Program-made: the position numbers and the translations under genes
Notes under the pieces: model-generated
What the model was told of the DNA's origin: nothing
What the model saw: the letters and a program-made list of their open reading frames with translations, nothing else
Databases searched by the model: none
Assembly: GCA_029258795.1 (NCBI GenBank)
Contig: JAPDKB010000009.1
Span: 32,001-96,000, forward strand
DNA: 64,000 nucleotides
Direction: 5' to 3'
From: an archaeon
GTDB lineage: Archaea; EX4484-52; WAPT01
Shown: positions 51,992 to 64,000 of the stretch, in pieces
How positions within the stretch are numbered: position 1 is the first letter of the stretch
How the letters are laid out: each line of letters begins with the position of its first letter

Positions 51992-54439
51992 TCAAAACCT
52001 TCTCTTTCCAAATGGAAGAACTCTGCTTCTCAGCTTCAATTTCTTCCTTTTCTTTACTGATGCTGCCAGAAAGATCATGAACACGAAGAAGATGGATAAG
52101 TAGAAATTCGTTTTTTCCGCACCTTCCAAAGCAAAGTACCCAGAAATACTATCTATTTCTGGAAGATCAAAGCTCCAACCTTCGTCAGCACTTTCTGCCT
52201 GTTGCTGCGCACTGCTATTGGTCTCTTCAACCTCCTCCTCCAGCTTCAGAGTGAATGAAACGGTATCCTTTGCTTCTTTACCGCTGAATGTGATCTTCGG
52301 GAAATAATATTTCTCACAACGGTCATTTATACAATCTTCTGCAGGTATGTTTATGTACATTTTAATAACTTTACTCTCTCCGGCTTTGATAACGTTTATG
52401 GATTTCGGAACAATTGCAAACCAGTCATAGTTCAGGTTTGTAACATCAACCACAATGTTCGTTACATCAACCTGCCCTGTGTTTTGGAGCGTTATCTCCA
52501 CTACCTTACTCTGTCCCGGGACAACACTTACAACATCTGGAGCAATGGATTTCAATTCGATTTTTCTCTCAACATGAATAACGAATGTCTTCTCAATAGA
52601 AATGTACGGGTTTTTTTCGGCTTTGGTCACAATTTCGTAACTGCCGTCTTCTTGAGGCGCGCTTATAACTGCAGAGAACTTCCCACCCAAATCGGTGGTT
52701 GTGGTTGTTGTCGCTTCCATCCCCTTTATGCTCACTGTAATTCGAACATCTTTGACGGGGTCTCCTTTGCTGTTTTTGACCACTCCGCTCACTTCCACAT
52801 TCTCTCCAGCATAATAATCTTTCTGTACCTCATCAAGCTCTATTATGAGGGGCTCGCGTTCTCCAACCACGAAAGCCCCGAGCTTGGTCGTATTTACCTT
52901 CACCACATTAGACACTATATTGACTTCCGAGGAAACAGCTTCCCACTCACCCACACACTCCCTCCTCCCAAAATTCCAGTCAGTACATCTATAAACCTCC
53001 AATCCTTTTTCGTTCCTAACGGAAGCATCGTTGTAAGGTATTGTGAGATATGCTGTTTTGAAGAGGGGTGCGAACTCCAGAACCACGAGTTTTACAGCTT
53101 TGAACCCCTCTATCTGTATGTTTTTTATGAATCTATCATACCTTATTCCATTTACCACGGGTTCGTTAATCTCAACCTGTTTTATAACTGCGGTTACTTC
53201 CGGAAACCGTATCTCGAAATCGTATGTGCCCGAAGGTAATGAGGTTTGGTATCTTCCCAGATTATCGGTTCGCATCAAAATTTCCTCCGTGTTTTCACCT
53301 CTTATCTTTATGATTCCATTCACAACATTACCTGCAGGATCTATCAGCTGACCCGACACAGGTATGACGAAATAAACCGGAACCTTGGATGAGACTGCAG
53401 GGGTGTAACCATCATATACGACTTTGATATAGAGTTCGTAGGGTTCGTTGGAAGATTCTAATTTGGGTATCTGCACAAGCAACTTGTATCTCTGTGTGTT
53501 GGCATCATACCAAACATTTAGGATTGGAATTCTCTTATCAATTCCATTACCCTCAATATAAGCTTCGAAATTATCCACAGTAAGATCATTTGCGGGCACG
53601 CCCTTTTCCAGAACTTGAATGGTTATGTTTTTGTTGGTGGTGTCTGCCAGCCTTATCTCGGTGGATGGGTTGGGATCTATCAGCACAGCGACCAGAGCAT
53701 CATTTATTCTGACAGCATCATAAGCAACATCAATTGCAGTTCTTTTCGACCCGTCCATGGTCAGTGATCCTCTCACCTCCAGGTCATAAATGCCCGGTGG
53801 CGTGTTCTGGTTGAAAGAAACTACTTGAATGCTCCAGATTTTTGTTCCGGGGTCAAATATGATGCTATCTACATTCAATGGGATTTTGGTATTACCTTCC
53901 TTAATGGACACGGAAAACTCCGGAGCGAGACCCGTGTCTACATACTGGTTATTGATTTTAAATTTCAATTTTACGGTGAACGATGATCCTGCATATACAT
54001 CATATAGGCTACCGGTTGCGGGTTCAACTATCTCAATCGTTGGCTTTTTTACAACAAAAGATAGAGTTTCAGTATCTTTTCCAGAGGAATCCTCGCAAGT
54101 TACGGTTGCCTCATAATTTCCGTAGAAAGTTGCAGTGTAATGCGCTTCATACATCCCACTCTCATCCTCTCCAAAATTCAGCGGTGCTTCCTTACCATCT
54201 GGAAGTGTAACAACTCCAAAGATGGAAGATGAGTTACTACTCTCATTCAAACTGCAATTGAGATGAAACGCGATTTCAACAGCATTTTGGTCGTAATTCA
54301 TCCATATGGGGGATGAGGGTTCCATGTAAAGCTCTACTATCTTAGCAGCATTAGTGCAGGAAGGCACTATAACAATGCCCATCACCAACAGGTACAGAAT
54401 TAATATTCTATTTACTGCTTGCATTCGCGAAACACCCAC
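51992..54439 (-). CDS. Secreted multi-Ig-domain protein with a C-terminal TM anchor
   Basis: Signal peptide, beta-rich repeats, QNTG motif, TM followed by a basic tail. Confidence 0.8.
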   Translation of the reverse strand: MGVSRMQAVNRILILYLLVMGIVIVPSCTNAAKIVELYMEPSSPIWMNYDQNAVEIAFHLNCSLNESSNSSSIFGVVTLPDGKEAPLNFGEDESGMYEAHYTATFYGNYEATVTCEDSSGKDTETLSFVVKKPTIEIVEPATGSLYDVYAGSSFTVKLKFKINNQYVDTGLAPEFSVSIKEGNTKIPLNVDSIIFDPGTKIWSIQVVSFNQNTPPGIYDLEVRGSLTMDGSKRTAIDVAYDAVRINDALVAVLIDPNPSTEIRLADTTNKNITIQVLEKGVPANDLTVDNFEAYIEGNGIDKRIPILNVWYDANTQRYKLLVQIPKLESSNEPYELYIKVVYDGYTPAVSSKVPVYFVIPVSGQLIDPAGNVVNGIIKIRGENTEEILMRTDNLGRYQTSLPSGTYDFEIRFPEVTAVIKQVEINEPVVNGIRYDRFIKNIQIEGFKAVKLVVLEFAPLFKTAYLTIPYNDASVRNEKGLEVYRCTDWNFGRRECVGEWEAVSSEVNIVSNVVKVNTTKLGAFVVGEREPLIIELDEVQKDYYAGENVEVSGVVKNSKGDPVKDVRITVSIKGMEATTTTTTDLGGKFSAVISAPQEDGSYEIVTKAEKNPYISIEKTFVIHVERKIELKSIAPDVVSVVPGQSKVVEITLQNTGQVDVTNIVVDVTNLNYDWFAIVPKSINVIKAGESKVIKMYINIPAEDCINDRCEKYYFPKITFSGKEAKDTVSFTLKLEEEVEETNSSAQQQAESADEGWSFDLPEIDSISGYFALEGAEKTNFYLSIFFVFMIFLAASVKKRKKLKLRSRVLPFGKRRF

Positions 54440-54445
54440 CTTCTC

Positions 54446-55195
54446 TCAAATCAAGCCCAGCAATTTTCTTATTCCCAAAAATCTGGGCGGTTCATAAACC
54501 TTTCCTATCAGCTTGGCTGCAAGCTTTTTCATGGCTATGGATGAAGAGGTGTAAGGATCCATCGCAATCACAGGAGTGCGCTGAAAGACACTCTTTCTGA
54601 CCTTTTCATCTTCGGGGATGACCTCTATGATGGGAGCTTCACAAATCACCTCAATCTCTTCCGGCTTTAGTTCGTGTTCATATCCGCTGTATCTGTTAAC
54701 AACAACACCCAAAATCCTCTTTTTTTGCTCTTCAGCCATCTTTATTACCTTTGCAGCGTTAGCCACAGCCGGAATTTCAGGAGTGGTCACGGCAAGCACC
54801 TCATCACACGCATTGAGCACCTCTCTACCAACAGTGTCCAATCCAGGTGGAGCGTCCACAATCACAATGTTGTAGGGTAGGGACTTCAATGTTTGCCTTA
54901 AATTCTTTGGTTTGACCGTCACGTCGTTTAGGGCTATGGAGCTGGGTATGAAGTTTATTCCTGTGGGATGTGTATGGATCGCGTGCTCAACCTCACTATC
55001 CCCTCTGATTATGCTTTGAAGGGTGTTGGGGAAAGAATAGTGCCCCAAATATATTCCCAAATTGGACGCGGTCATATCTGCATCCACAACCACAACCTTC
55101 TCCCCAAACTGATGGAGAGCAAGAGCAAGGTTAGCAGCGCAAACGGTTTTACCAACTCCTCCTTTTCCAGAAGCAACACATATTACTCGAGGCAA
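54446..55195 (-). CDS. minD: MinD/ParA-family ATPase
   Basis: SGKGGVGKT, DAD, DAPPG, C-terminal amphipathic FLGIRKLLGL. Confidence 0.92.
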   Translation of the reverse strand: MPRVICVASGKGGVGKTVCAANLALALHQFGEKVVVVDADMTASNLGIYLGHYSFPNTLQSIIRGDSEVEHAIHTHPTGINFIPSSIALNDVTVKPKNLRQTLKSLPYNIVIVDAPPGLDTVGREVLNACDEVLAVTTPEIPAVANAAKVIKMAEEQKKRILGVVVNRYSGYEHELKPEEIEVICEAPIIEVIPEDEKVRKSVFQRTPVIAMDPYTSSSIAMKKLAAKLIGKVYEPPRFLGIRKLLGLI

Positions 55196-55258
55196 GTGCT
55201 CACCCCACAGGTATGCATTTTTAAACTATTTTTGGTGAAATAACATATATAAATATAT

Positions 55259-56155
55259 CTACATCTCACACTTTTTTGATTTGGGTTGAGTTCTTTTCTT
55301 TGATTTTGGGATGTTTTTGTAATCAGAGCCAAGATGCTTCGATAATATGAAGCCAAACACCATACCCACAACCATCCCGATCAAGAGCACGATTGGTAAA
55401 CTCGGACGTTTCTCTTCCTCCCTGATTTGAGGTAAAACGTCGAACCTGTAAACCTTACCGCCTGAGCTGTCTATTAACACCATAGGAATCTTTTTGGTGG
55501 TTAAAACTCCGTAGTCCCAATTAATCTGAAGTTTCAAGACACCATCTTCCAACTCCAGCTCCCGATAACGAGCAGCATAAACCTTGTCTCCCGGAGGTAT
55601 GGTGAGCGGTAGCACCAGAACATCCTTCAGATTGCTACTGGTTGTGTTCACCAGTGTAATCTCAACGTTTATTGTTGAAGGGTCATTTTCATAAATCCAC
55701 GAATTCGAAGCCACACGTATTACTGACATATTGGTGTAGTTGGAGCCATTGATTTGAAGGGTTGTTTTATTCAACCTTTTTATTTCATCGCAAAAGTATA
55801 GCGTGGGGATGAGCGTGAAATTTCCAGACAGATTACCGAAAAACCAGTAATTTCTGAAGGTGGCTATTCCTCCCGGGGCAACGCGCTCCACATTGCTCCA
55901 CGAGGTGTAAATTATTGACCCATTTGCATCTTCAACATCAATTCTCATGTACGTTTTGCATCCCGCAGAGCCCGTATTTTCCCATACAGACACAACCTCA
56001 ACCACGCTCATATTCTCCAGAATTGAAACATTGCTGTAGGCAAGGGTACCATCAACATCTCCTGCTATGTTAACAAATATGGGAACTGATGATGCAAAAT
56101 TGATGCAGAATGCTATACTGAAACAAACCAGCAAGATCGGAAGCAATCTTTTCAT
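55259..56155 (-). CDS. Secreted Ig-like protein with a C-terminal TM
   Basis: Signal peptide, WENTGS, sequons, TM plus basic tail. Confidence 0.75.
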   Translation of the reverse strand: MKRLLPILLVCFSIAFCINFASSVPIFVNIAGDVDGTLAYSNVSILENMSVVEVVSVWENTGSAGCKTYMRIDVEDANGSIIYTSWSNVERVAPGGIATFRNYWFFGNLSGNFTLIPTLYFCDEIKRLNKTTLQINGSNYTNMSVIRVASNSWIYENDPSTINVEITLVNTTSSNLKDVLVLPLTIPPGDKVYAARYRELELEDGVLKLQINWDYGVLTTKKIPMVLIDSSGGKVYRFDVLPQIREEEKRPSLPIVLLIGMVVGMVFGFILSKHLGSDYKNIPKSKKRTQPKSKKCEM

Positions 56156-56179
56156 ATTGTTTAGAAGGTCAGGAAATCT

Positions 56180-56737
56180 TTATATGTCCTTTCTCCAAGC
56201 TTCAAACTTATACTCACACAATTCGTTCAGGAATTTTTCCGAGACGCTATAGCGAGGAATACAAATCAGAACATGAGCCATCCCCGTATAATTCCCCACT
56301 TCATTTCCAACAAACTTTATTTTAACATTCATGGCTTCTCCCGGAGAAAGGACGATGTTGTTTCGCTCTATTTCAACTTTTTCACTTACGTTCCCTTCTA
56401 CCACTATCTGAATTTTGGTCTTCATTAGATTTGACGGAGCTTTTAGCTCTATTTCTCGGGTAACGTTTCCCCCCAACGGAACGATACCGAACGCAAGCTC
56501 ATCGGGATCAACGCTCACACCCAGCTTGGTAATGTTTGTCTGACTCATGTTGATTACAAAAGCGCTCGCATTAAAACTCACATAGCGAATCATGACTCCG
56601 TGTTTGAAAAGGAAAACGATGAACACAAAAAATATGGAGAATGCTACAACAACACTCCAGCTGAATATTCTGGTTATCAAACCATAATTTATTTCCTTTC
56701 TGAGTTTTGTCCTTTTTCTCTTCATGAGAACGCTCAC
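56180..56737 (-). CDS. N-terminally anchored Ig-like protein
   Basis: TM followed by VDPDELAFGIVPLG and GNYTG. Confidence 0.7.
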   Translation of the reverse strand: MSVLMKRKRTKLRKEINYGLITRIFSWSVVVAFSIFFVFIVFLFKHGVMIRYVSFNASAFVINMSQTNITKLGVSVDPDELAFGIVPLGGNVTREIELKAPSNLMKTKIQIVVEGNVSEKVEIERNNIVLSPGEAMNVKIKFVGNEVGNYTGMAHVLICIPRYSVSEKFLNELCEYKFEAWRKDI

Positions 56738-56738
56738 C

Positions 56739-57722
56739 TTACATTTTCCAGTAGACGTAAAGGCCTATCAGCGCGAGGATGATCATCAGGAACCACCATG
56801 GTATTTTTCTTTTTGGACTGGCCCGTTCCTGCACTTTTGCGACTATCTCTGCCGGAATCTTTATCACATCCTCTTTTGTGACTTGACCTGTGATGTAATC
56901 CACCTTCGCTTCCACCCTCACCTTTTCGGAAGGTATCTCTTCAGAGCTGGTCCAGAAACCGTGAAGAACCACAGTATCTCCCGGAGCTATACGGGTAGCA
57001 GAACCGGCCAGAAGATCGATAACATTGCCTTCATTGTCCTTTATCTGCAGCTCCGAGAGTCTGGCGGTTATGGTGGTTGTTCCGGTGTTTTTGAAGAGCA
57101 CATCTATTCTCACGCGGTTTTTGGCTTCCCTTTCAGCTTCAAAATCAATTATGGTTCCTTTTCTTTCAGCCACACCCGGAACTCTAAAAACGAAAATCAA
57201 CCTTGTGATTCCCACAGTAGCTACCCCCGCCCCACCACTTGTCTCTACCCTGAGCTTCGGGATGATGTTGATCGCTCCAGCATGATATCCGGGCTCAGCG
57301 TCCTTCGGAACTTTTAGAATAAATGTGGCCTTTCTATTGTACTTTATAGAAGTGCCGTCAGGGAGCGTTATCACCTTCACATTGTTTGGATCGAGGATGT
57401 AGGGGTTTTGGGGAAATTCGATCCAGCTTGAGATGTCTTCTTCAGAGACTTCTGCAGGAATCATAACATATGGATCTCTCTTTTCTTTAAACAAAACATC
57501 TCGGTGCACTGGAACGTAAGATAAGGTTACGGGAAGCGGCTCTCGGGTGTTGGAAATTATGTAAAAACTAACCGCCACCTCCTTTCCTCGGGGAACATCT
57601 CCGAGGTCTATCACTCCGGGAGACACACCTATACCTAAGGAATATGAGGTTGTGCTCAATAAAATCATCATTGACAGTGAAATGAACCAAAAACTTACTG
57701 GTTTTTTATCAATATTCATCAT
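56739..57722 (-). CDS. Two-domain secreted PapD/DUF916-like protein with a C-terminal TM
   Basis: GIGVSPGVIDLG, VPKDAEPGYHAG.I, FKNTGTT, TM; the fold assignment is pattern-based. Confidence 0.65.
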   Translation of the reverse strand: MMNIDKKPVSFWFISLSMMILLSTTSYSLGIGVSPGVIDLGDVPRGKEVAVSFYIISNTREPLPVTLSYVPVHRDVLFKEKRDPYVMIPAEVSEEDISSWIEFPQNPYILDPNNVKVITLPDGTSIKYNRKATFILKVPKDAEPGYHAGAINIIPKLRVETSGGAGVATVGITRLIFVFRVPGVAERKGTIIDFEAEREAKNRVRIDVLFKNTGTTTITARLSELQIKDNEGNVIDLLAGSATRIAPGDTVVLHGFWTSSEEIPSEKVRVEAKVDYITGQVTKEDVIKIPAEIVAKVQERASPKRKIPWWFLMIILALIGLYVYWKM

Positions 57723-57819
57723 GTTAAAACATCACCCACTTTCACCTTTAAATTAATATCGACATCCCCACATCTCAAATTATTTTTTCTCTCGTTATAT
57801 CGAACTATACACTCAATAA

Positions 57820-57836
57820 GAGAAAAATTTATATAC
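57820..57836 (+). promoter_or_regulatory. BRE/TATA promoter for subunit pair 1
   Basis: gagaaaaa-tttatata. Confidence 0.6.
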
Positions 57837-57882
57837 TCCCTCGTATCGGTATTATCTTCACACAGTATCTGAGGGGCTATTT

Positions 57883-57904
57883 TGCTCCTCAGGAAGACGG
57901 GGGA
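57883..57904 (+). repeat. Left arm of a perfect 22-bp inverted repeat
   Basis: tgctcctcaggaagacggggga is the reverse complement of 62542-62563. Confidence 0.95.
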
Positions 57905-57909
57905 TTAGG

Positions 57910-58860
57910 ATGTTGCCCAGTAAGGGGGATAAAACACAGAGTTATTTAGAGCCAGCGACTTTGGGATTTGTAGTGTTACTTCTATTGCTATCTATAATGA
58001 AATTGCCCTCTTTATCGTTTGGTTATGAAGCCAACGATACCATAACCATAAACGTCACCGTGGCTCAGGTGGCGATGGTCACCATCGATCCGAGCTCTCT
58101 GAGCTGGAGCAATGTTGAACCCGGCAGTGTGGGCGACGAGGATTATGAGGATCATGGTTATGATGGTATATGGATAGAGAACATAGGTAGTGTAAACATA
58201 ACTTATGTATGGTTCAACGCTTCTTACCCTCCATCCTCACCTTTTGGAACTGGTGATCCTCAAGCATATGATGCTGGAAACTTCGTGGTGCTCACGCCAA
58301 ATGAATCAACAACACCATATCATTTCGTTAACAGGGTGGAGTACAACGATCTTTACAGGACAGGCACCATGTATGTATTTCCAGCAGGAACACCATCCTT
58401 CTTCGGAAGGTTCAGAAACGCAAGTTACGAATACTTTATTGAGCTTGATGCCACAAATTATGGAAACTGCAGCAGTGGTAGTCTGTACATTTCAGATACT
58501 CCGAAAACAAAGGAAAATAGCGGAGATATATACCTCTCAGATAACACCCCAGTCACCGTCAATCCGGTGAGTTATAATGGAAAGACATGGGGTGTTGCAG
58601 AGGTTGATATAGACACCCAAAAGTACTGTGTGATTTTTGATTCGGGGTGTAATTACGCTATTTTCAACAGATGGAACGCTGATTTGCCGGGAGTCAACTC
58701 CACCTATTGTCCAAATGTAAGTGGTTATATGAAAGACGATTCCACACAACCCATCGTTCCCGGAGATGTGTTCAAGGTGAATATAAGGGTGTATGTCCCT
58801 TATGGTGTCCCTTACGGTACTGTTAAGACTGGTACACTCACGGTCTTTGTTAAAGCGTGA
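57910..58860 (+). CDS. Secreted putative filament subunit, type A1
   Basis: Signal peptide; NDTITINV, IWIENIGSVNIT, PFGTG, NRVEY, VPYGVP; no TM anchor. Confidence 0.8.
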   Translation: MLPSKGDKTQSYLEPATLGFVVLLLLLSIMKLPSLSFGYEANDTITINVTVAQVAMVTIDPSSLSWSNVEPGSVGDEDYEDHGYDGIWIENIGSVNITYVWFNASYPPSSPFGTGDPQAYDAGNFVVLTPNESTTPYHFVNRVEYNDLYRTGTMYVFPAGTPSFFGRFRNASYEYFIELDATNYGNCSSGSLYISDTPKTKENSGDIYLSDNTPVTVNPVSYNGKTWGVAEVDIDTQKYCVIFDSGCNYAIFNRWNADLPGVNSTYCPNVSGYMKDDSTQPIVPGDVFKVNIRVYVPYGVPYGTVKTGTLTVFVKA

Positions 58861-58925
58861 TGAGTGGGTAACGTGTGTATGATGTTCATCCCAATCAATC
58901 ATATTCAAGACGGAGGTGATACACC

Positions 58926-59957
58926 ATGAAAGGTGAAATAAAGTTTGGTATTGGCGTTGTGATGGCAGCGATTGCACTAATTGCGGCGCTTTTTGTAAGC
59001 TTTAATCCAAATGTTGAAGCAGCATACAATGCTGAGAACAGCAGCTGGGACAACTCAACGGTGACTGTAAAGATTGGACCGATAACTATGATTGATGTCA
59101 CACCAGAGAAGATGGACTTCGGAACAGCGATTCCGGGAGAAATAATCTCGGTGTATAACGTTACGGATACCACCAATGATCTGGTGAATCTCACAGCATT
59201 CCAGATAGAGAACATAGGCTCCACCAACATCAGCAAGATATGGCTCAACGTCACTAAGCCACGTGAGAATCCATTCGGTACTGGTAATGCCAGCAAGTAC
59301 AACCCGGGAAACTGGCTGGCAGTTAGCATACGATTCTATCCGGAGGGTTTGACAGTGCCCACTCAGGACATGAGCTACATTCACAGAGTGGAGTTCAACA
59401 CATCACAGGAGATAGTGTATCTGAAGAAGCCTCAGAATACCGTTTCATACGGAAGGTTCAGGGTCGGAAGCAATGAGTACTTCTGGGCGCTGACATCATC
59501 GGATGGCTCGTGCCCAACAACCACAGGTTCAACTCTGACATTCATCATAGGAAACTACAGCGAGCCGCACACACAGAATGACACCGGTGACATAGATTTA
59601 ACAGATGGAGATGAGAGAATAATAACCCTAACGTTGAACACCGATGGATGGTTTGTTCCTGCAACAGGGAGCAGCGCGTTAGATTTCAATGGTGCCAATG
59701 AAAACTATATGGTCATAGTAAACGGAAGCTGTAATGAAGTGCACTTCGTTGCATGGGACAGGGACTTTGCGGAATCCGTTGCGAAGGCAGACGTGTCCAA
59801 ACTACCAAACAACGCATCAGTGTTTGATGAAACAATAGCAGGTCAGCCTCTCTATCCAGGTCAGAGCATAGCAATGAACGTACAGCTCAGAATTCCATAT
59901 GGAGTCCCAACGGCAAATTACATGGGCTACATGACGGTTGTGGCGTCAAGAGTTTAA
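58926..59957 (+). CDS. Secreted putative filament subunit, type B1
   Basis: VTVKIGPIT, TP..MDFGTA.PG, QIENIGST, PFGTG, RVEFN, IPYGVP. Confidence 0.8.
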   Translation: MKGEIKFGIGVVMAAIALIAALFVSFNPNVEAAYNAENSSWDNSTVTVKIGPITMIDVTPEKMDFGTAIPGEIISVYNVTDTTNDLVNLTAFQIENIGSTNISKIWLNVTKPRENPFGTGNASKYNPGNWLAVSIRFYPEGLTVPTQDMSYIHRVEFNTSQEIVYLKKPQNTVSYGRFRVGSNEYFWALTSSDGSCPTTTGSTLTFIIGNYSEPHTQNDTGDIDLTDGDERIITLTLNTDGWFVPATGSSALDFNGANENYMVIVNGSCNEVHFVAWDRDFAESVAKADVSKLPNNASVFDETIAGQPLYPGQSIAMNVQLRIPYGVPTANYMGYMTVVASRV

Positions 59958-59967
59958 GCTCGACATG

Positions 59968-60010
59968 AACGCCCTTTAATTTTTTAGGGCGTTTTACACC
60001 TTTTCTTATT
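59968..60010 (+). terminator. Hairpin plus T-rich terminator after pair 1
   Basis: aacgccct-N10-agggcgtt followed by T tracts. Confidence 0.65.
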
Positions 60011-60083
60011 CCTAACTCTTTTTCTTGTTCTTAACAAATATACAAATCCGGTCATCTCACGATTACTCATTCTTAAGTAATCA

Positions 60084-60099
60084 CAAAATCTTTATATAC
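60084..60099 (+). promoter_or_regulatory. BRE/TATA promoter for subunit pair 2
   Basis: caaaatc-tttatata, preceded by the palindrome GATTACT-N8-AGTAATC (60061-60082). Confidence 0.55.
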
Positions 60100-60208
60100 A
60101 CCTTTTGCGTTTAAACATCATTAAATCGCAATATCTCGATATAGTGGTGTGTGTACATTTAAAAGTATCTCAGTATCGAGCTCAAAAGTTATCGAGAGGA
60201 GGAGGTTT

Positions 60209-61264
60209 ATGGAAAAGGGGTTGGCTTTCGGGAGCATTTTGATTTTAATTGTGGTATTGGGGGTCGTTTCCGTTTTGCTGATTGCCCCACCTATCCATTC
60301 TTTATCTTATTCCGCTAACGATACCATAACCATCAACGTAAGTGTAAGGCAGGTAACGCTGGTTGACATAAATCCATCGAATCTAACTTGGACTGATGTA
60401 CCTCCAGGCGGTGTGGGAGATAGCAGCAAAGAAGCCCACAACTACAGTGGCATCTGGATTGAGAATATAGGCAGTGTGAATATAACAAAAGCTTGGCTTG
60501 CAAACACTTATTGGAATGATCCAACAAATAAGGGTCCTTTCGGAACCGGTAATGCTTCCCTTTACGACCCCGCAAACATGGTTGTCGTATCTTTGAATGA
60601 GACGGATCCAAATCAACCCTTCCAGTTTATTAACAGGGTTGAATACCCCGATAGCAACAGGTACAGTGGAGACTTTTACATAAGGTTTGATTCAGGTGCT
60701 AAGTGGGGAAGATTCAGAAACACATCTTACGAGTACTTCTGGGAGGTGGTTCCCGGAGCTTCTGGAAACTGTTCGAATGGAACTCTTGTCATCTCAACGG
60801 TACCGCACACTCAGCAACAAACAGGCACAGTCGATCTTACAACCTCTAATCCAGATTGTGTGAATCAACCAACCGGTTCAACCACTGCACCATGTAGGAA
60901 GGTAACATTAACCACTCTCAGCAGTTACAACGGAGACAATTCCACACTACCCTCCGGTGTTTATGGTGTTGCCGAAATTTCTATAGGTCAGGGAGATCTC
61001 CCCAGATACTGCTTTGCAATAAAGGATGATTGCAACCTAGCAGTATTTGTTAAATGGAACGCCGATTTCGTCGAAGCTGCTAGAAAGGCGGGTGCGTGCA
61101 CACTCAATCCATACCTTTTCGATGGCTCTTCCAATCCGGATCAGGTGCTGGTTCCGGGAGAAATATTCCATGCTTTCGTGCGCGTTTACGTACCATACGG
61201 TGTACCATACGGCACGATAGGCAGCGCAACTCCTAGACAGGTTAGAGTGTACGTGAGCGCGTAA
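60209..61264 (+). CDS. Secreted putative filament subunit, type A2
   Basis: Closest to A1: ANDTITINV, GIWIENIGSVNIT, GRFRN.SYEY, WNAD, VYVPYGVPYGT; GGAGG RBS. Confidence 0.8.
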   Translation: MEKGLAFGSILILIVVLGVVSVLLIAPPIHSLSYSANDTITINVSVRQVTLVDINPSNLTWTDVPPGGVGDSSKEAHNYSGIWIENIGSVNITKAWLANTYWNDPTNKGPFGTGNASLYDPANMVVVSLNETDPNQPFQFINRVEYPDSNRYSGDFYIRFDSGAKWGRFRNTSYEYFWEVVPGASGNCSNGTLVISTVPHTQQQTGTVDLTTSNPDCVNQPTGSTTAPCRKVTLTTLSSYNGDNSTLPSGVYGVAEISIGQGDLPRYCFAIKDDCNLAVFVKWNADFVEAARKAGACTLNPYLFDGSSNPDQVLVPGEIFHAFVRVYVPYGVPYGTIGSATPRQVRVYVSA

Positions 61265-61277
61265 TTAAGGTGAGGAG

Positions 61278-61505
61278 ATGACGAGCGGAACAAAAACGGT
61301 TGAAGAAGCTGTTATGGAAGTGCTTCGGAAAGCGAAAATGCCCATGACCACTTATCAAATTGCGAAGAAGGTTGGAGCGTCTTGGGGGTCTGTTAATACT
61401 GCGTGTTATAAGCTAAAGGATGCGGGACTGGTGGAGAAGGATGTTATAACTCCCCGTGTGGGAAGCGGGAAAAAAGTTGTGTGGTGGGCGAAGAAAAAAT
61501 CATGA
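61278..61505 (+). CDS. Small winged-helix DNA-binding protein
   Basis: PMTTYQIAKKVGASWGSV...LKDAGLV, wing ending VWW. Confidence 0.85.
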   Translation: MTSGTKTVEEAVMEVLRKAKMPMTTYQIAKKVGASWGSVNTACYKLKDAGLVEKDVITPRVGSGKKVVWWAKKKS

Positions 61506-61527
61506 TCATCTCAAAAGGTGAGGATGT

Positions 61528-62454
61528 ATGAGTAGGAAGGGATTTAAGCTGGTGAGTGCCGCAACCTTGATGATTGCGGTGATTGCTGCGGCGTTCCTGT
61601 TGACGGGCACCAACAACCCTGCCGAAGCAGCGACAGTCAGCAATGCAAGTGTTACAGTAAACATAGGAGCCATAACGATAGTAGATATAACTCCACAGGC
61701 AATGAATTTTGGAACAGCAAATCCGGGAAGCAGGTTGTACCAGTACACAGACCCCGACAACGGAATAACTCTGAGCCAGATCCAGATAGAGAATCTGGGT
61801 TCAACAACAATAAGTTCAATACACTTCAATGTAACGCAGCCATCAAGCGACCCGTTTGGTAGCGGGGCTGCATCTAACTACAACACCGGAAACTGGCTGT
61901 TACTGAAGCACACTACAGACACATACTACGCATATGTGGACAGGGTGGAGTGGAACTCTTCATATCCTATAGTTTACCTTGAACCAGGACTGCCAACTAA
62001 CTCCAAAACCTACGGAAAGATCAGGATGGGTAACAGAGAGTACTTCTGGACCATAAACGGAAGCTCAGACTACTGTAACACAACAGGAAACACACTGGTA
62101 ATAGGACAGACACCTCACAACGAGAGCCAGACCGGTACGATAAACCTCGAGAGCGGTGACATAGTGGTCGGAAGCATTCAGGGAGTTGATGCGAACTGGG
62201 GTATCGTTGACGGCATAACAATTGAAGGTGTCAGCTACTGTGTTGCAGTATCTGCAGATTGTAGCACTCTGAGGATTTACAAGTGGAACAAGGACGCTCC
62301 CGGAGCAGGATCGTGTTCCAGTTACAACGATTTCGCAACCAGCATAGCCCCGGGTGCTTCAGTGGTGGCCGACGTAGCATTATATGTGCCATACGGAGTT
62401 CCACAGGGTACTCCAACCACAGGTTACCTAACCGTGATAGCAGAAGCTGCGTAA
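61528..62454 (+). CDS. Secreted putative filament subunit, type B2
   Basis: Closest to B1: VTVNIGAIT, TP.AMNFGTANPG, QIENLGST, YN.GNWL, VPYGVP. Confidence 0.8.
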   Translation: MSRKGFKLVSAATLMIAVIAAAFLLTGTNNPAEAATVSNASVTVNIGAITIVDITPQAMNFGTANPGSRLYQYTDPDNGITLSQIQIENLGSTTISSIHFNVTQPSSDPFGSGAASNYNTGNWLLLKHTTDTYYAYVDRVEWNSSYPIVYLEPGLPTNSKTYGKIRMGNREYFWTINGSSDYCNTTGNTLVIGQTPHNESQTGTINLESGDIVVGSIQGVDANWGIVDGITIEGVSYCVAVSADCSTLRIYKWNKDAPGAGSCSSYNDFATSIAPGASVVADVALYVPYGVPQGTPTTGYLTVIAEAA

Positions 62455-62487
62455 ATGACTTAAAGATTTAGGCACAGGACAAGATTG

Positions 62488-62520
62488 AGGCCATTTTATT
62501 TTTTGGCCTTCCTTTCCTTT
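62488..62520 (+). terminator. Hairpin plus pyrimidine tract after pair 2
   Basis: aggcca-N10-tggcct followed by tcctttccttt. Confidence 0.55.
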
Positions 62521-62541
62521 AACTTTCACCACACATCATGG

Positions 62542-62563
62542 TCCCCCGTCTTCCTGAGGAGCA
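62542..62563 (-). repeat. Right arm of the perfect 22-bp inverted repeat
   Basis: tcccccgtcttcctgaggagca. Confidence 0.95.
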
Positions 62564-62705
62564 GGGCAGCTTTTCAAAGCTGCTCTGCTTCTCTTTAATT
62601 TTTCTGATTCTGATATAATGAGAGGTTAAGATGGCGTTATAATAATATTTAAATATTTTAACTCGACTCATTCTTAATCAAGACAGCCTCTGTGGTCGTT
62701 GCGAA

Positions 62706-64000
62706 ATGGTTAGTGCCAGCAGGAAAGCAGTATCCGGTATCTTTTTTATTTTTTTGATATCCTTCTTAGGGTTTCTTCTCTGCTCTCAAAATTCCAGCTC
62801 TTATGCGGATAGCAATAAACTGCACATTCAGTCGATCGAGGAGGGAAACACATATTACAACATCACGGTTAAGGGGCAAGTAGGAGAGACGTTTAATCTG
62901 GTGATTACTTCTAAGAGCGACGGGAATACTGTATTTTCAAAGAAATCAATTATACCGGAATCCGGAAGCTATTCTTTCATAATTTCCAAAACACTTCTTA
63001 ATGGTGGCGTTGATCAATACAATATGATTGTAACCCCCCTCCAGAAGAACCCTTTGGCTATCCAAACTTCAATTAATGAAGAGAGCAAGAAAACCTTTAC
63101 TAAAAAACCGAGAATAAGGATGGCTGATGCTTACTTAAGAAGTCTTGTTTCAGGTAAAGCTGCCAGAAGGGTAGATATTCCTTCTTTAGTCCTTGAAAAT
63201 CCTGATTTTGCTGAGATATATGTGCTGGAAGCGGAAGTGGGAAAACCTGTTAAGGTTGCTGCTATTAGAAAATATGTTCCAAGTCGGAGTAAGAGTAACT
63301 CTGACCTATACACACTTGGAACAACCTCCGACTCAATGGAGGTTTTTGAGCTCCCTGCTCCTCAAAAGAAAGAATTTCCAATAAAGAGAAGCAGAAGAGG
63401 TGCAAAACAAGTGGTGATTTCTTATCCAGCACATCTCACCAATGTCAAAGCAAGCACAAGCGTTCCGGAAACACTCATAGAGCCACGACTTTATCATGTG
63501 ATCAACGGAAAATGGGTGGATGTTACTGAAAAGGAGAATGTCACGTTCATGGATACGGACAATGATGGCAGGTACGATTACGTGGAATGGATTGTGCCCC
63601 ACACTTCAGAACAGATTTATGTGGTGGGGGAAGGATCAGGAACTGGGAAAGAAAGCGTGAATGTAAGGAGGGATGTACCTTCAGCTGTAGGGACGGGCAA
63701 AAACTTCACTGTCACGCTTGTGGTTTACAATGACGGAGACAAACCAGCTTACAATTTAACGATAAATGAAACATTAAGTAGCGCTGAAGTATGGATTGTG
63801 GCTGATTCTGGAGATGGAAGTGTGAGTGGAAACGTCATTAGCTTTTTCCTTGATGTGCTATACCCCGATGAAAGCCACACGTTCCGTTATGTGATCACAG
63901 CTCCACAAACAGAATCCACACTGCAAATACACTATAACCTCACCTACAATAACGAGAGTGGGGCATTCTTCTCTCTCAGCGACCCAACACCGTCATCCAT
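62706..64000 (+). CDS. Large secreted surface protein (partial, runs off the window)
   Basis: Translated by hand with no stop: MVSASRKAVSGIFFIFLISFLGFLL signal peptide, DTDNDGRYDYVEWIVPHTSEQ, DUF11-like FTVTLVVYNDG. Confidence 0.85.
   Translation, partial: MVSASRKAVSGIFFIFLISFLGFLLCSQNSSSYADSNKLHIQSIEEGNTYYNITVKGQVGETFNLVITSKSDGNTVFSKKSIIPESGSYSFIISKTLLNGGVDQYNMIVTPLQKNPLAIQTSINEESKKTFTKKPRIRMADAYLRSLVSGKAARRVDIPSLVLENPDFAEIYVLEAEVGKPVKVAAIRKYVPSRSKSNSDLYTLGTTSDSMEVFELPAPQKKEFPIKRSRRGAKQVVISYPAHLTNVKASTSVPETLIEPRLYHVINGKWVDVTEKENVTFMDTDNDGRYDYVEWIVPHTSEQIYVVGEGSGTGKESVNVRRDVPSAVGTGKNFTVTLVVYNDGDKPAYNLTINETLSSAEVWIVADSGDGSVSGNVISFFLDVLYPDESHTFRYVITAPQTESTLQIHYNLTYNNESGAFFSLSDPTPSS

Follow-up and report, generated by a model that had tools for sequence, protein, structure and literature searches.

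A perfect 22-nt inverted repeat around a secreted-protein gene cassette of a DPANN archaeon: a candidate plus-strand RNA pairing element

The window analysed here, a stretch of 64,000 nucleotides (nt) that corresponds to positions 32001-96000 of contig C5 (JAPDKB010000009.1) in the 96.3% complete genome of a thermophile-like DPANN archaeon from a hydrothermal-vent metagenome, contains a cassette with four paralogous genes, A1 to A4, bracketed by a perfect inverted repeat of 22 nt. A previous sequence-only reading of the window had pointed to this repeat as a candidate switch, acting either by inversion of the DNA or at the RNA level, and the arrangement that it described was found to be exact: the left arm occupies 57883-57904 of the plus strand and the right arm, which is its exact reverse complement, 62542-62563, the window search returning these two matches with 0 mismatches. 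All the genes of the cassette are on the plus strand, and A1-A4 encode secreted beta-rich proteins of 308-351 amino acids (aa) with a hydrophobic N-terminal segment. The first one, A1, is the open reading frame (ORF) 57910-58860 (316 aa), and the ORFs that follow are A2 (58926-59957, 343 aa, with a canonical Shine-Dalgarno [SD] sequence), A3 (60209-61264, 351 aa counted from an ATG behind a strong SD), a gene for a 75-aa winged-helix protein (61278-61505) that is kept between A3 and A4 in relatives, and A4 (61528-62454, 308 aa). A TATA box preceded by a purine-rich run resembling a transcription factor B recognition element can be read at 57828-57835, and the left arm lies downstream of it, with 5 nt between its end and the A1 start codon at 57910, also as previously described. 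Because A2 is followed by a hairpin and a T run (59970-59995), read in the sequence as the likely A1-A2 terminator, and A3 has its own TATA box (60091-60098) in addition to its strong SD, A1-A2 and A3-winged helix-A4 are two transcription units and not one cassette mRNA, so that a pairing between the arms would join two mRNAs, or one mRNA and a 3'-derived RNA.

The repeat was unique in the genome. No further copies appeared in the window when up to 3 mismatches were allowed, two matches were reached in none of 100 dinucleotide shuffles, and across all 23 contigs of the assembly (1,168,407 bases) the 22-mer occurred once in forward and once in reverse orientation, with 0 matches for a reversed-pattern control. 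Among the 19 exact inverted pairs of this genome with a length of at least 16 nt and a spacing of 100-10,000 nt it was the third longest, and the only longer ones were two 29-nt pairs in repeated DNA on contig C13. A contig from an independent run (X2) covering 57807-58206 displayed the same arrangement as the reference, with 6 differences of which none was inside the left arm, and L036, a contig from an independent metagenome, extends from A3 past the right arm and its hairpin. With both junctions present in independent assemblies, the repeat is real and not an assembly artefact, and the genome-wide count of this pair only likewise disposes of the concern, raised together with the original proposal, that the 22-mer might be a common dispersed repeat. 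Two more inverted pairs, of 20 and 17 nt and with their members about 3.9 kb apart, were observed at C3:43392-43411/47208-47227 and C4:86004-86020/89958-89974; they are copies of one near-palindromic motif with A-rich/T-rich flanks and resemble bidirectional terminators placed at the borders of operons. At many of its ends a contig overlaps another one by exactly 127 nt (e.g. C1:187911 and C5:1, C3:141881 and C9:1, C1:310059 and C3:1); these look like assembly-graph overlaps, by which contigs could be joined.

The complementarity continues inward of the 22-mer to 31 nt at 90% (57883-57913 and 62533-62563), and includes an ATG on both sides, which on the left is the A1 start codon. As DNA, 6 of these 9 additional positions match, the ATG among them, and the outer boundary is abrupt, with matches at 0 of the first 4 outer positions. 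When both extended arms are taken as plus-strand RNA, two of the three DNA mismatches in the extension become G.U pairs, so that 30 of the 31 positions pair (28 Watson-Crick, 2 G.U, 1 mismatch) across the A1 AUG. In archaeal promoters the TATA box is centred about 26 nt upstream of the transcription start and, from this distance, A1 transcripts would begin near 57859-57862. RNA folding placed in their 5' untranslated region (UTR) a hairpin of 10 pairs, two of them G.U (57868-57893), which had been noticed in the sequence-only reading and whose 3' strand is formed by the first 11 nt of the left arm. The fold of the 78-nt A1 leader (z -2.5) leaves unpaired both the AUG and the SD-like G run that lies inside the left arm. 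The sole change of run X2 in the leader hairpin, a G to A at 57875, replaces a G.U by an A-U pair and so improves the hairpin.

Some further observations concern the 5' end of A1. In the relatives compared (L034 and L017), the stretch equivalent to 57905-57936, which is here read as codons, is a purine-rich module placed directly before the A1 start codon; this lineage uses a new upstream A1 start with the 22-mer leader, and the 5' end of the gene seems to have been remodelled. A 20-nt part of this stretch (57917-57936, A1 codons 3-9) is identical to the leader located at C1:100023-100042 (minus strand), just before the start of a gene that encodes a paralogue of the 75-aa winged-helix protein of the cassette. 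Near-copies with 1-2 changes lie at C4:81465-81483 (minus strand) and C7:26665-26683 (plus strand), in both cases in intergenic DNA behind hairpins. The motif may represent a leader or SD module common to these sites, or else point to co-regulation, and a search for partners complementary to it (57917-57935, G.U allowed) returned only the opposite strands of the four sites themselves.

Downstream of A4, the sequence and its RNA fold revealed a first terminator-like element at 62487-62510, a short hairpin with T4 and T6 runs in the loop, and the T6 run is found at the same place in L036. Next comes the extended right arm (62533-62563), which we refer to as the anti-leader. Fourteen C/U-rich nucleotides of it (62542-62555) are unpaired in the local RNA fold and adjoin, on its 5' side, a hairpin of 17 bp (62556-62593) whose 5' strand shares the last 8 nt of the right arm. 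The sequence-only reading had described this hairpin on the minus strand and, although the structure is indeed present, the strand has to be corrected: as plus-strand RNA it forms 17 uninterrupted pairs, two of them G.U (-34.6 kcal/mol, z -6.7), whereas on the minus strand two A.C mismatches occupy the G.U positions (-28.7 kcal/mol, z -3.0). In run X2 one nucleotide is deleted at the stem top (62577). A U-rich tract, read in the sequence at 62594-62603 and kept in L036, follows the hairpin and, because no upstream minus-strand gene needs a terminator there, hairpin and tract look like a second terminator for A4 transcripts and are likely to serve as such for the A3-winged helix-A4 unit. The conservation of a second terminator would imply that transcription sometimes extends that far, and every RNA that does so would carry the anti-leader. 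Also present, as had been reported, are a six-codon mini-ORF that follows the right arm on the minus strand and an AT-rich stretch (62641-62665); judged by its position only, the latter is most simply explained as the promoter of the plus-strand gene that comes next, with its start at 62706. A permissive Rfam scan of 57000-63500 yielded 3 matches, all of them far below the gathering scores and none at either arm.

The L036 contig made it possible to compare the right side of the cassette with that of a relative. The A4 coding sequence was identical at 696 of 930 positions (75%) and at 173 of 308 third codon positions (56%), and the spacer after the A4 stop codon at 39 of 78 (50%). By comparison, all 22 positions of the right arm were identical, as were 39 of 42 in the right hairpin region, where the stems were invariant and the changes confined to the loop, and the whole module 62533-62605 retained 66 of 73 positions. 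These identities and the changes in X2 indicate that both hairpins and the right arm are under constraint.

We then compared the strength of the pairing at A1 with that at other gene starts. Against the 597 SD-bearing starts of the genome, the extended right arm had its best partner in A1 (-53.2 kcal/mol, the next one reaching -33.9), and the same was true of the 14 exposed nucleotides (-29.2 kcal/mol for A1 and -22.4 for the next). Among the 7 starts of the window, the right module gave -76.0 kcal/mol with A1 and -34.8 or weaker with the six others. At 37 C, cofolding of leader and module brought a gain of about -32 kcal/mol; the duplex was also retained in the folds at 75 and 90 C, at which temperatures the separate folds were nearly melted. 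The GC content of the 16S rRNA region (0.62, versus 0.44 for the genome) points, from general knowledge, to growth at high temperature, and thermophily fits a need for a long duplex. An archaeal bulge-helix-bulge processing stem, that is, two 3-nt bulges separated by a 4-bp helix, was not found, the long-range helix consisting of 22 uninterrupted pairs with no bulges.

We tentatively favour the interpretation that the repeat acts through plus-strand RNA pairing which tunes the translation of A1, and not as a DNA flip switch, on account of the G.U asymmetry of the right hairpin, the pairing of 30 out of 31 positions across the AUG, and the near invariance of the right module in a relative with 75% identity. 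According to this hypothesis, the right arm would be an anti-leader at the 3' end of a plus-strand RNA from the A3-winged helix-A4 unit, either an mRNA isoform long enough to run past the first oligo-T terminator or a fragment of that isoform. The exposed C/U-rich nucleotides of the anti-leader (62542-62555) would make contact with the SD-like stretch left unpaired in the A1 leader, and the duplex would then spread into both local hairpins until 22 perfect pairs, or as many as 30 of 31 across the A1 AUG, are formed. In this way, the A1 ribosome-binding site would be covered and the output of A1-A2 tied to the level of the A3-winged helix-A4 unit; the effect to be expected is a reduced translation of A1, and an altered mRNA stability is also possible. 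Of the mechanisms contemplated in the sequence-only reading, it is thus the blocking of the A1 ribosome-binding site by a 3' RNA that is favoured by the strand asymmetry, the 14 exposed nucleotides, the conservation in L036 and the first rank among 597 starts, while its version with a single read-through transcript of the cassette is contradicted by the existence of two transcription units.

Several results weigh against this interpretation. The only diverged copy available is the right arm of L036, which is identical, and the left arm is missing from that contig, so that no compensatory change is observable; a lone identical arm, in sequence terms, would suit recognition of a specific sequence as well as it suits pairing. 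Moreover, pairing alone should allow some C-to-U changes in the right arm, and none was seen in 22 positions. The sequencing runs listed as containing the stretch, of which a hydrothermal-vent metagenome gave the best match, included no RNA run, and passage of transcription through the first oligo-T terminator is something that we infer only from the conserved plus-strand hairpin and U tract. Searches for the exact 22-mer gave 0 matches in a one-genome-per-species collection and 1 contig (L036) in the JGI metagenomes and, with a tolerance of 3 mismatches, the remaining 41 genomes of the order yielded none save a 3-mismatch match in G025. This match, located within a lipoprotein gene whose product is presumably the substrate-binding protein of an ABC transporter, was judged to be due to chance. 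When the cognate starts and tails of eight relatives were confronted, they obtained modest ranks, from 4 to 90 of 597, which could be explained by purine-rich starts facing pyrimidine-rich terminators, and in six genus-level representatives, this genome left out, cognate leader-tail pairs were no better than non-cognate ones (24 of 120 permutations were as good).

Among exact inverted repeats of at least 13 nt in 20 loci from relatives none joined a leader to a 3' end; all that appeared there were purine/pyrimidine pairs of low complexity near the second gene, 17 nt long in L015 and 15 nt long in L019. Because of the modest ranks and the lack of a cognate advantage once this genome was removed, we dropped the idea of an order-wide conservation of the pairing, which in its long form belongs to this lineage and not to the order. 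In other families, the tails of A4 orthologues also hold a C/U-rich tract and a GC-rich hairpin that are specific to the locus and not dispersed. As a side observation, the tails of the A4 orthologues in one genus contain tandem copies of a unit about 53 nt long (3.8 of them in G025, L047:2964-3168; 2 or more in L015, L022, L024 and L026). Each unit comprises a C/U-rich tract and a hairpin that is GC-rich in the stem region and C-rich in its loop, and in those genomes it is essentially confined to the A4 tail locus.

Among the alternatives, the sequence-only reading had put forward an invertible cassette, in which recombination between the arms would flip the 4.6-kb segment and thereby cut A1 from its promoter or provide it with another promoter and leader. 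A perfect and unique inverted repeat around surface-protein genes agrees with this model, as does the AT-rich stretch outside the right arm; an ATG follows inward on both arms, and the strict identity of all 22 positions, invariant in L036, would suit a sequence-specific DNA site. The bracketing of DNA near surface-structure genes by inverted repeats is likewise reminiscent of fimS, hin and the putative archaeal invertons, which are minimally studied, with 12 reported in 42 genomes (PMC10028968). However, known invertons come with a dedicated invertase and with both orientations in the reads, and here we found no dedicated invertase and a single orientation in contigs; the usual invertible unit, moreover, is a promoter of a few hundred bases, and not a 4.6-kb block of four genes with the promoter outside. 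The absence of recombinases from the window, noted previously, was corroborated and extends almost to the whole genome, in which the serine recombinase family PF00239 had 0 matches and the tyrosine recombinase family PF00589 only 1, a 290-codon frame on contig C7 (at 96.3% completeness a missed gene is possible). From its size, we take this frame to be a chromosome-dimer recombinase of the Xer type.

Inversion is also at odds with the sequence of the arm, whose longest internal dyad is 4+1+4, unlike the core sites of recombinases, and with the orientation data: the 10 joints listed in the contigs of 4 runs were all skips and none changed strand, in assembled Logan contigs that drop rare variants and, for some runs, do not cover parts of the region. 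The X1 and X2 contigs cross the left arm and L036 the right arm, all in the reference orientation, and the first A gene is divergent from its neighbour U1 in relatives, as it is here. Finally, an inversion leaves the plus-strand G.U pattern and the conserved hairpin and U tract unexplained. As recombinase content, dyad symmetry and orientation in assembled contigs thus provided nothing in its support, we regard the invertible cassette as improbable. We give equally little credence to the variant in which the segment would be a true phase-variable inverton lacking a dedicated invertase, flipped by the lone Xer-type recombinase or by short-homology recombination, with the RNA features being secondary.

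It is similarly unlikely that the arms are two copies of a DNA operator, perhaps engaged in looping, for a regulator such as the 75-aa winged-helix protein. The conservation of the winged-helix gene within the cassette in relatives speaks for this possibility, and so do the 22 conserved positions and the location of the left arm immediately after the A1 promoter, at a point where transcription would be stopped by a bound repressor; yet no copy exists at the second promoter (60091-60098) or elsewhere in the genome, there is little dyad symmetry in the arm, it is not obvious what a site behind the last gene would do, and the RNA-type features are left without explanation. The protein itself gave weak TrmB, Lrs14 and Sta1 matches, all of them under the curated cut-offs.

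Slightly more doubtful still is a small RNA transcribed inward on the minus strand from outside the right arm, which as a copy of the A1 leader would be a decoy for a leader-binding factor, or would be antisense to the A4 3' end. This proposal, also present in the sequence-only reading, takes into account that on that strand the same 22 nt are followed by an ATG and preceded by AT-rich sequence, and strict conservation would suit recognition by a protein. It is disfavoured by the weaker hairpin that the minus strand forms (two A.C mismatches, z -3.0 versus -6.7) and by the lack of conservation of its other elements, since the minus-strand TATA-like letters beside the right hairpin are absent from the same place in L036, and the mini-ORF of six codons is replaced there by an unrelated longer frame. 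Least probable of all, and very unlikely in our opinion, is a functionless relic, be it the remnant of an inverted duplication of the A1 5' end, suggested by the similarity that runs inward over 6 of 9 more positions including the ATG, or the terminal repeats of a dead mobile element, since the 22-mer is identical at 22 of 22 positions in L036 against 56% at third codon positions and 50% in the neighbouring spacer, and neither a target-site duplication (lengths 2-10) nor further copies in the genome nor a transposase were found that would identify a transposon or miniature inverted-repeat transposable element (the mobile-element genes searched were those of tyrosine and serine recombinases).

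The genes so bracketed belong to a family that matched no Pfam or NCBIfam entry. A sequence search of the PDB with the A1-A4 proteins gave no match, and neither did a Foldseek search of the PDB with the AlphaFold model of A4, which is beta-rich and moderately confident (pLDDT 69.9), at E<=0.001. Weak leads only, with scores of 0.75-0.77, were obtained in the Atlas, to clusters of DUF1102, WxL and Peptidase_M73. The family was present in 32 of 41 genomes of the order, this genome counted, and in neither of two genomes of the same genus: G001 and G002 (90 and 94% complete) contained no homologue of A1, and their DNA matches to 52000-64000 did not exceed 39 nt. It may be that the locus as a whole varies within the genus, or that it is unassembled in these two genomes. 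Gene order is kept, with the divergent genes U3-U2-U1 adjoining A1-A2 and with A3, the 75-aa winged-helix gene and A4 forming a second block, which in most relatives is at a locus separate from A1-A2. The cassette is flanked (51992-57722 and 62706-63998) by genes for a MinD/ParA-type ATPase and for three proteins that are secreted or located in the membrane, one of which has an Ig-like domain of the ASH type; an 815-aa protein containing Ig-like domains and a further large secreted protein are also encoded there. These neighbours are found again in distant lineages of DPANN, and a single cell-surface apparatus is thereby suggested. A1-A4 are probably components of the cell surface.

Precedents for the RNA reading are available from bacteria and archaea. 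A few bacteria are known in which a 3' UTR pairs with a ribosome-binding region (PMC3868564, PMC8722363), and our literature search turned up no archaeal or DPANN case of such pairing. In the icaR mRNA of Staphylococcus aureus, the 3' UTR pairs with the SD region of its own mRNA and blocks the formation of the initiation complex (PMC3868564); the duplex is reportedly cleaved by RNase III. This is the closest analogue within one mRNA, as there too a C-rich 3' motif stands opposite a G-rich ribosome-binding region. However, icaR involves one mRNA and one gene, whereas the predicted partners described here are in two transcription units, and the present duplex, with 22 perfect pairs, would be far longer. 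Most archaea, moreover, are not expected to possess RNase III.

For pairing between two mRNAs, the nearest analogue is that of Listeria monocytogenes, in which the hly 3' UTR pairs with the prsA2 5' UTR, coupling expression and shielding the target from a 5' exonuclease (PMC8722363). In that case, it is also the 3' UTR of a full-length mRNA that acts on the 5' end of the mRNA of a functionally linked secreted-protein factor, but the effect is positive, whereas the duplex proposed here would cover the SD and the AUG, so that repression is to be expected. For the archaea, sRNA162 of Methanosarcina mazei is described as a regulatory RNA that acts on an mRNA (PMC3510493). It is encoded by a free-standing small RNA gene, in contrast to the present element, which is located at the 3' end of an operon beside a terminator hairpin. 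The mechanism of sRNA162 is reportedly the masking of a ribosome-binding site.

If the RNA pairing hypothesis is correct, an archaeal operon would control the ribosome-binding site of its partner operon by means of its own 3' end, with a duplex long enough for high temperature. The target genes belong to a widespread uncharacterised family of secreted DPANN proteins, probable surface components and as such relevant to the symbiotic lifestyle, and the element offers a testable handle on how the stoichiometry of surface proteins may be set.

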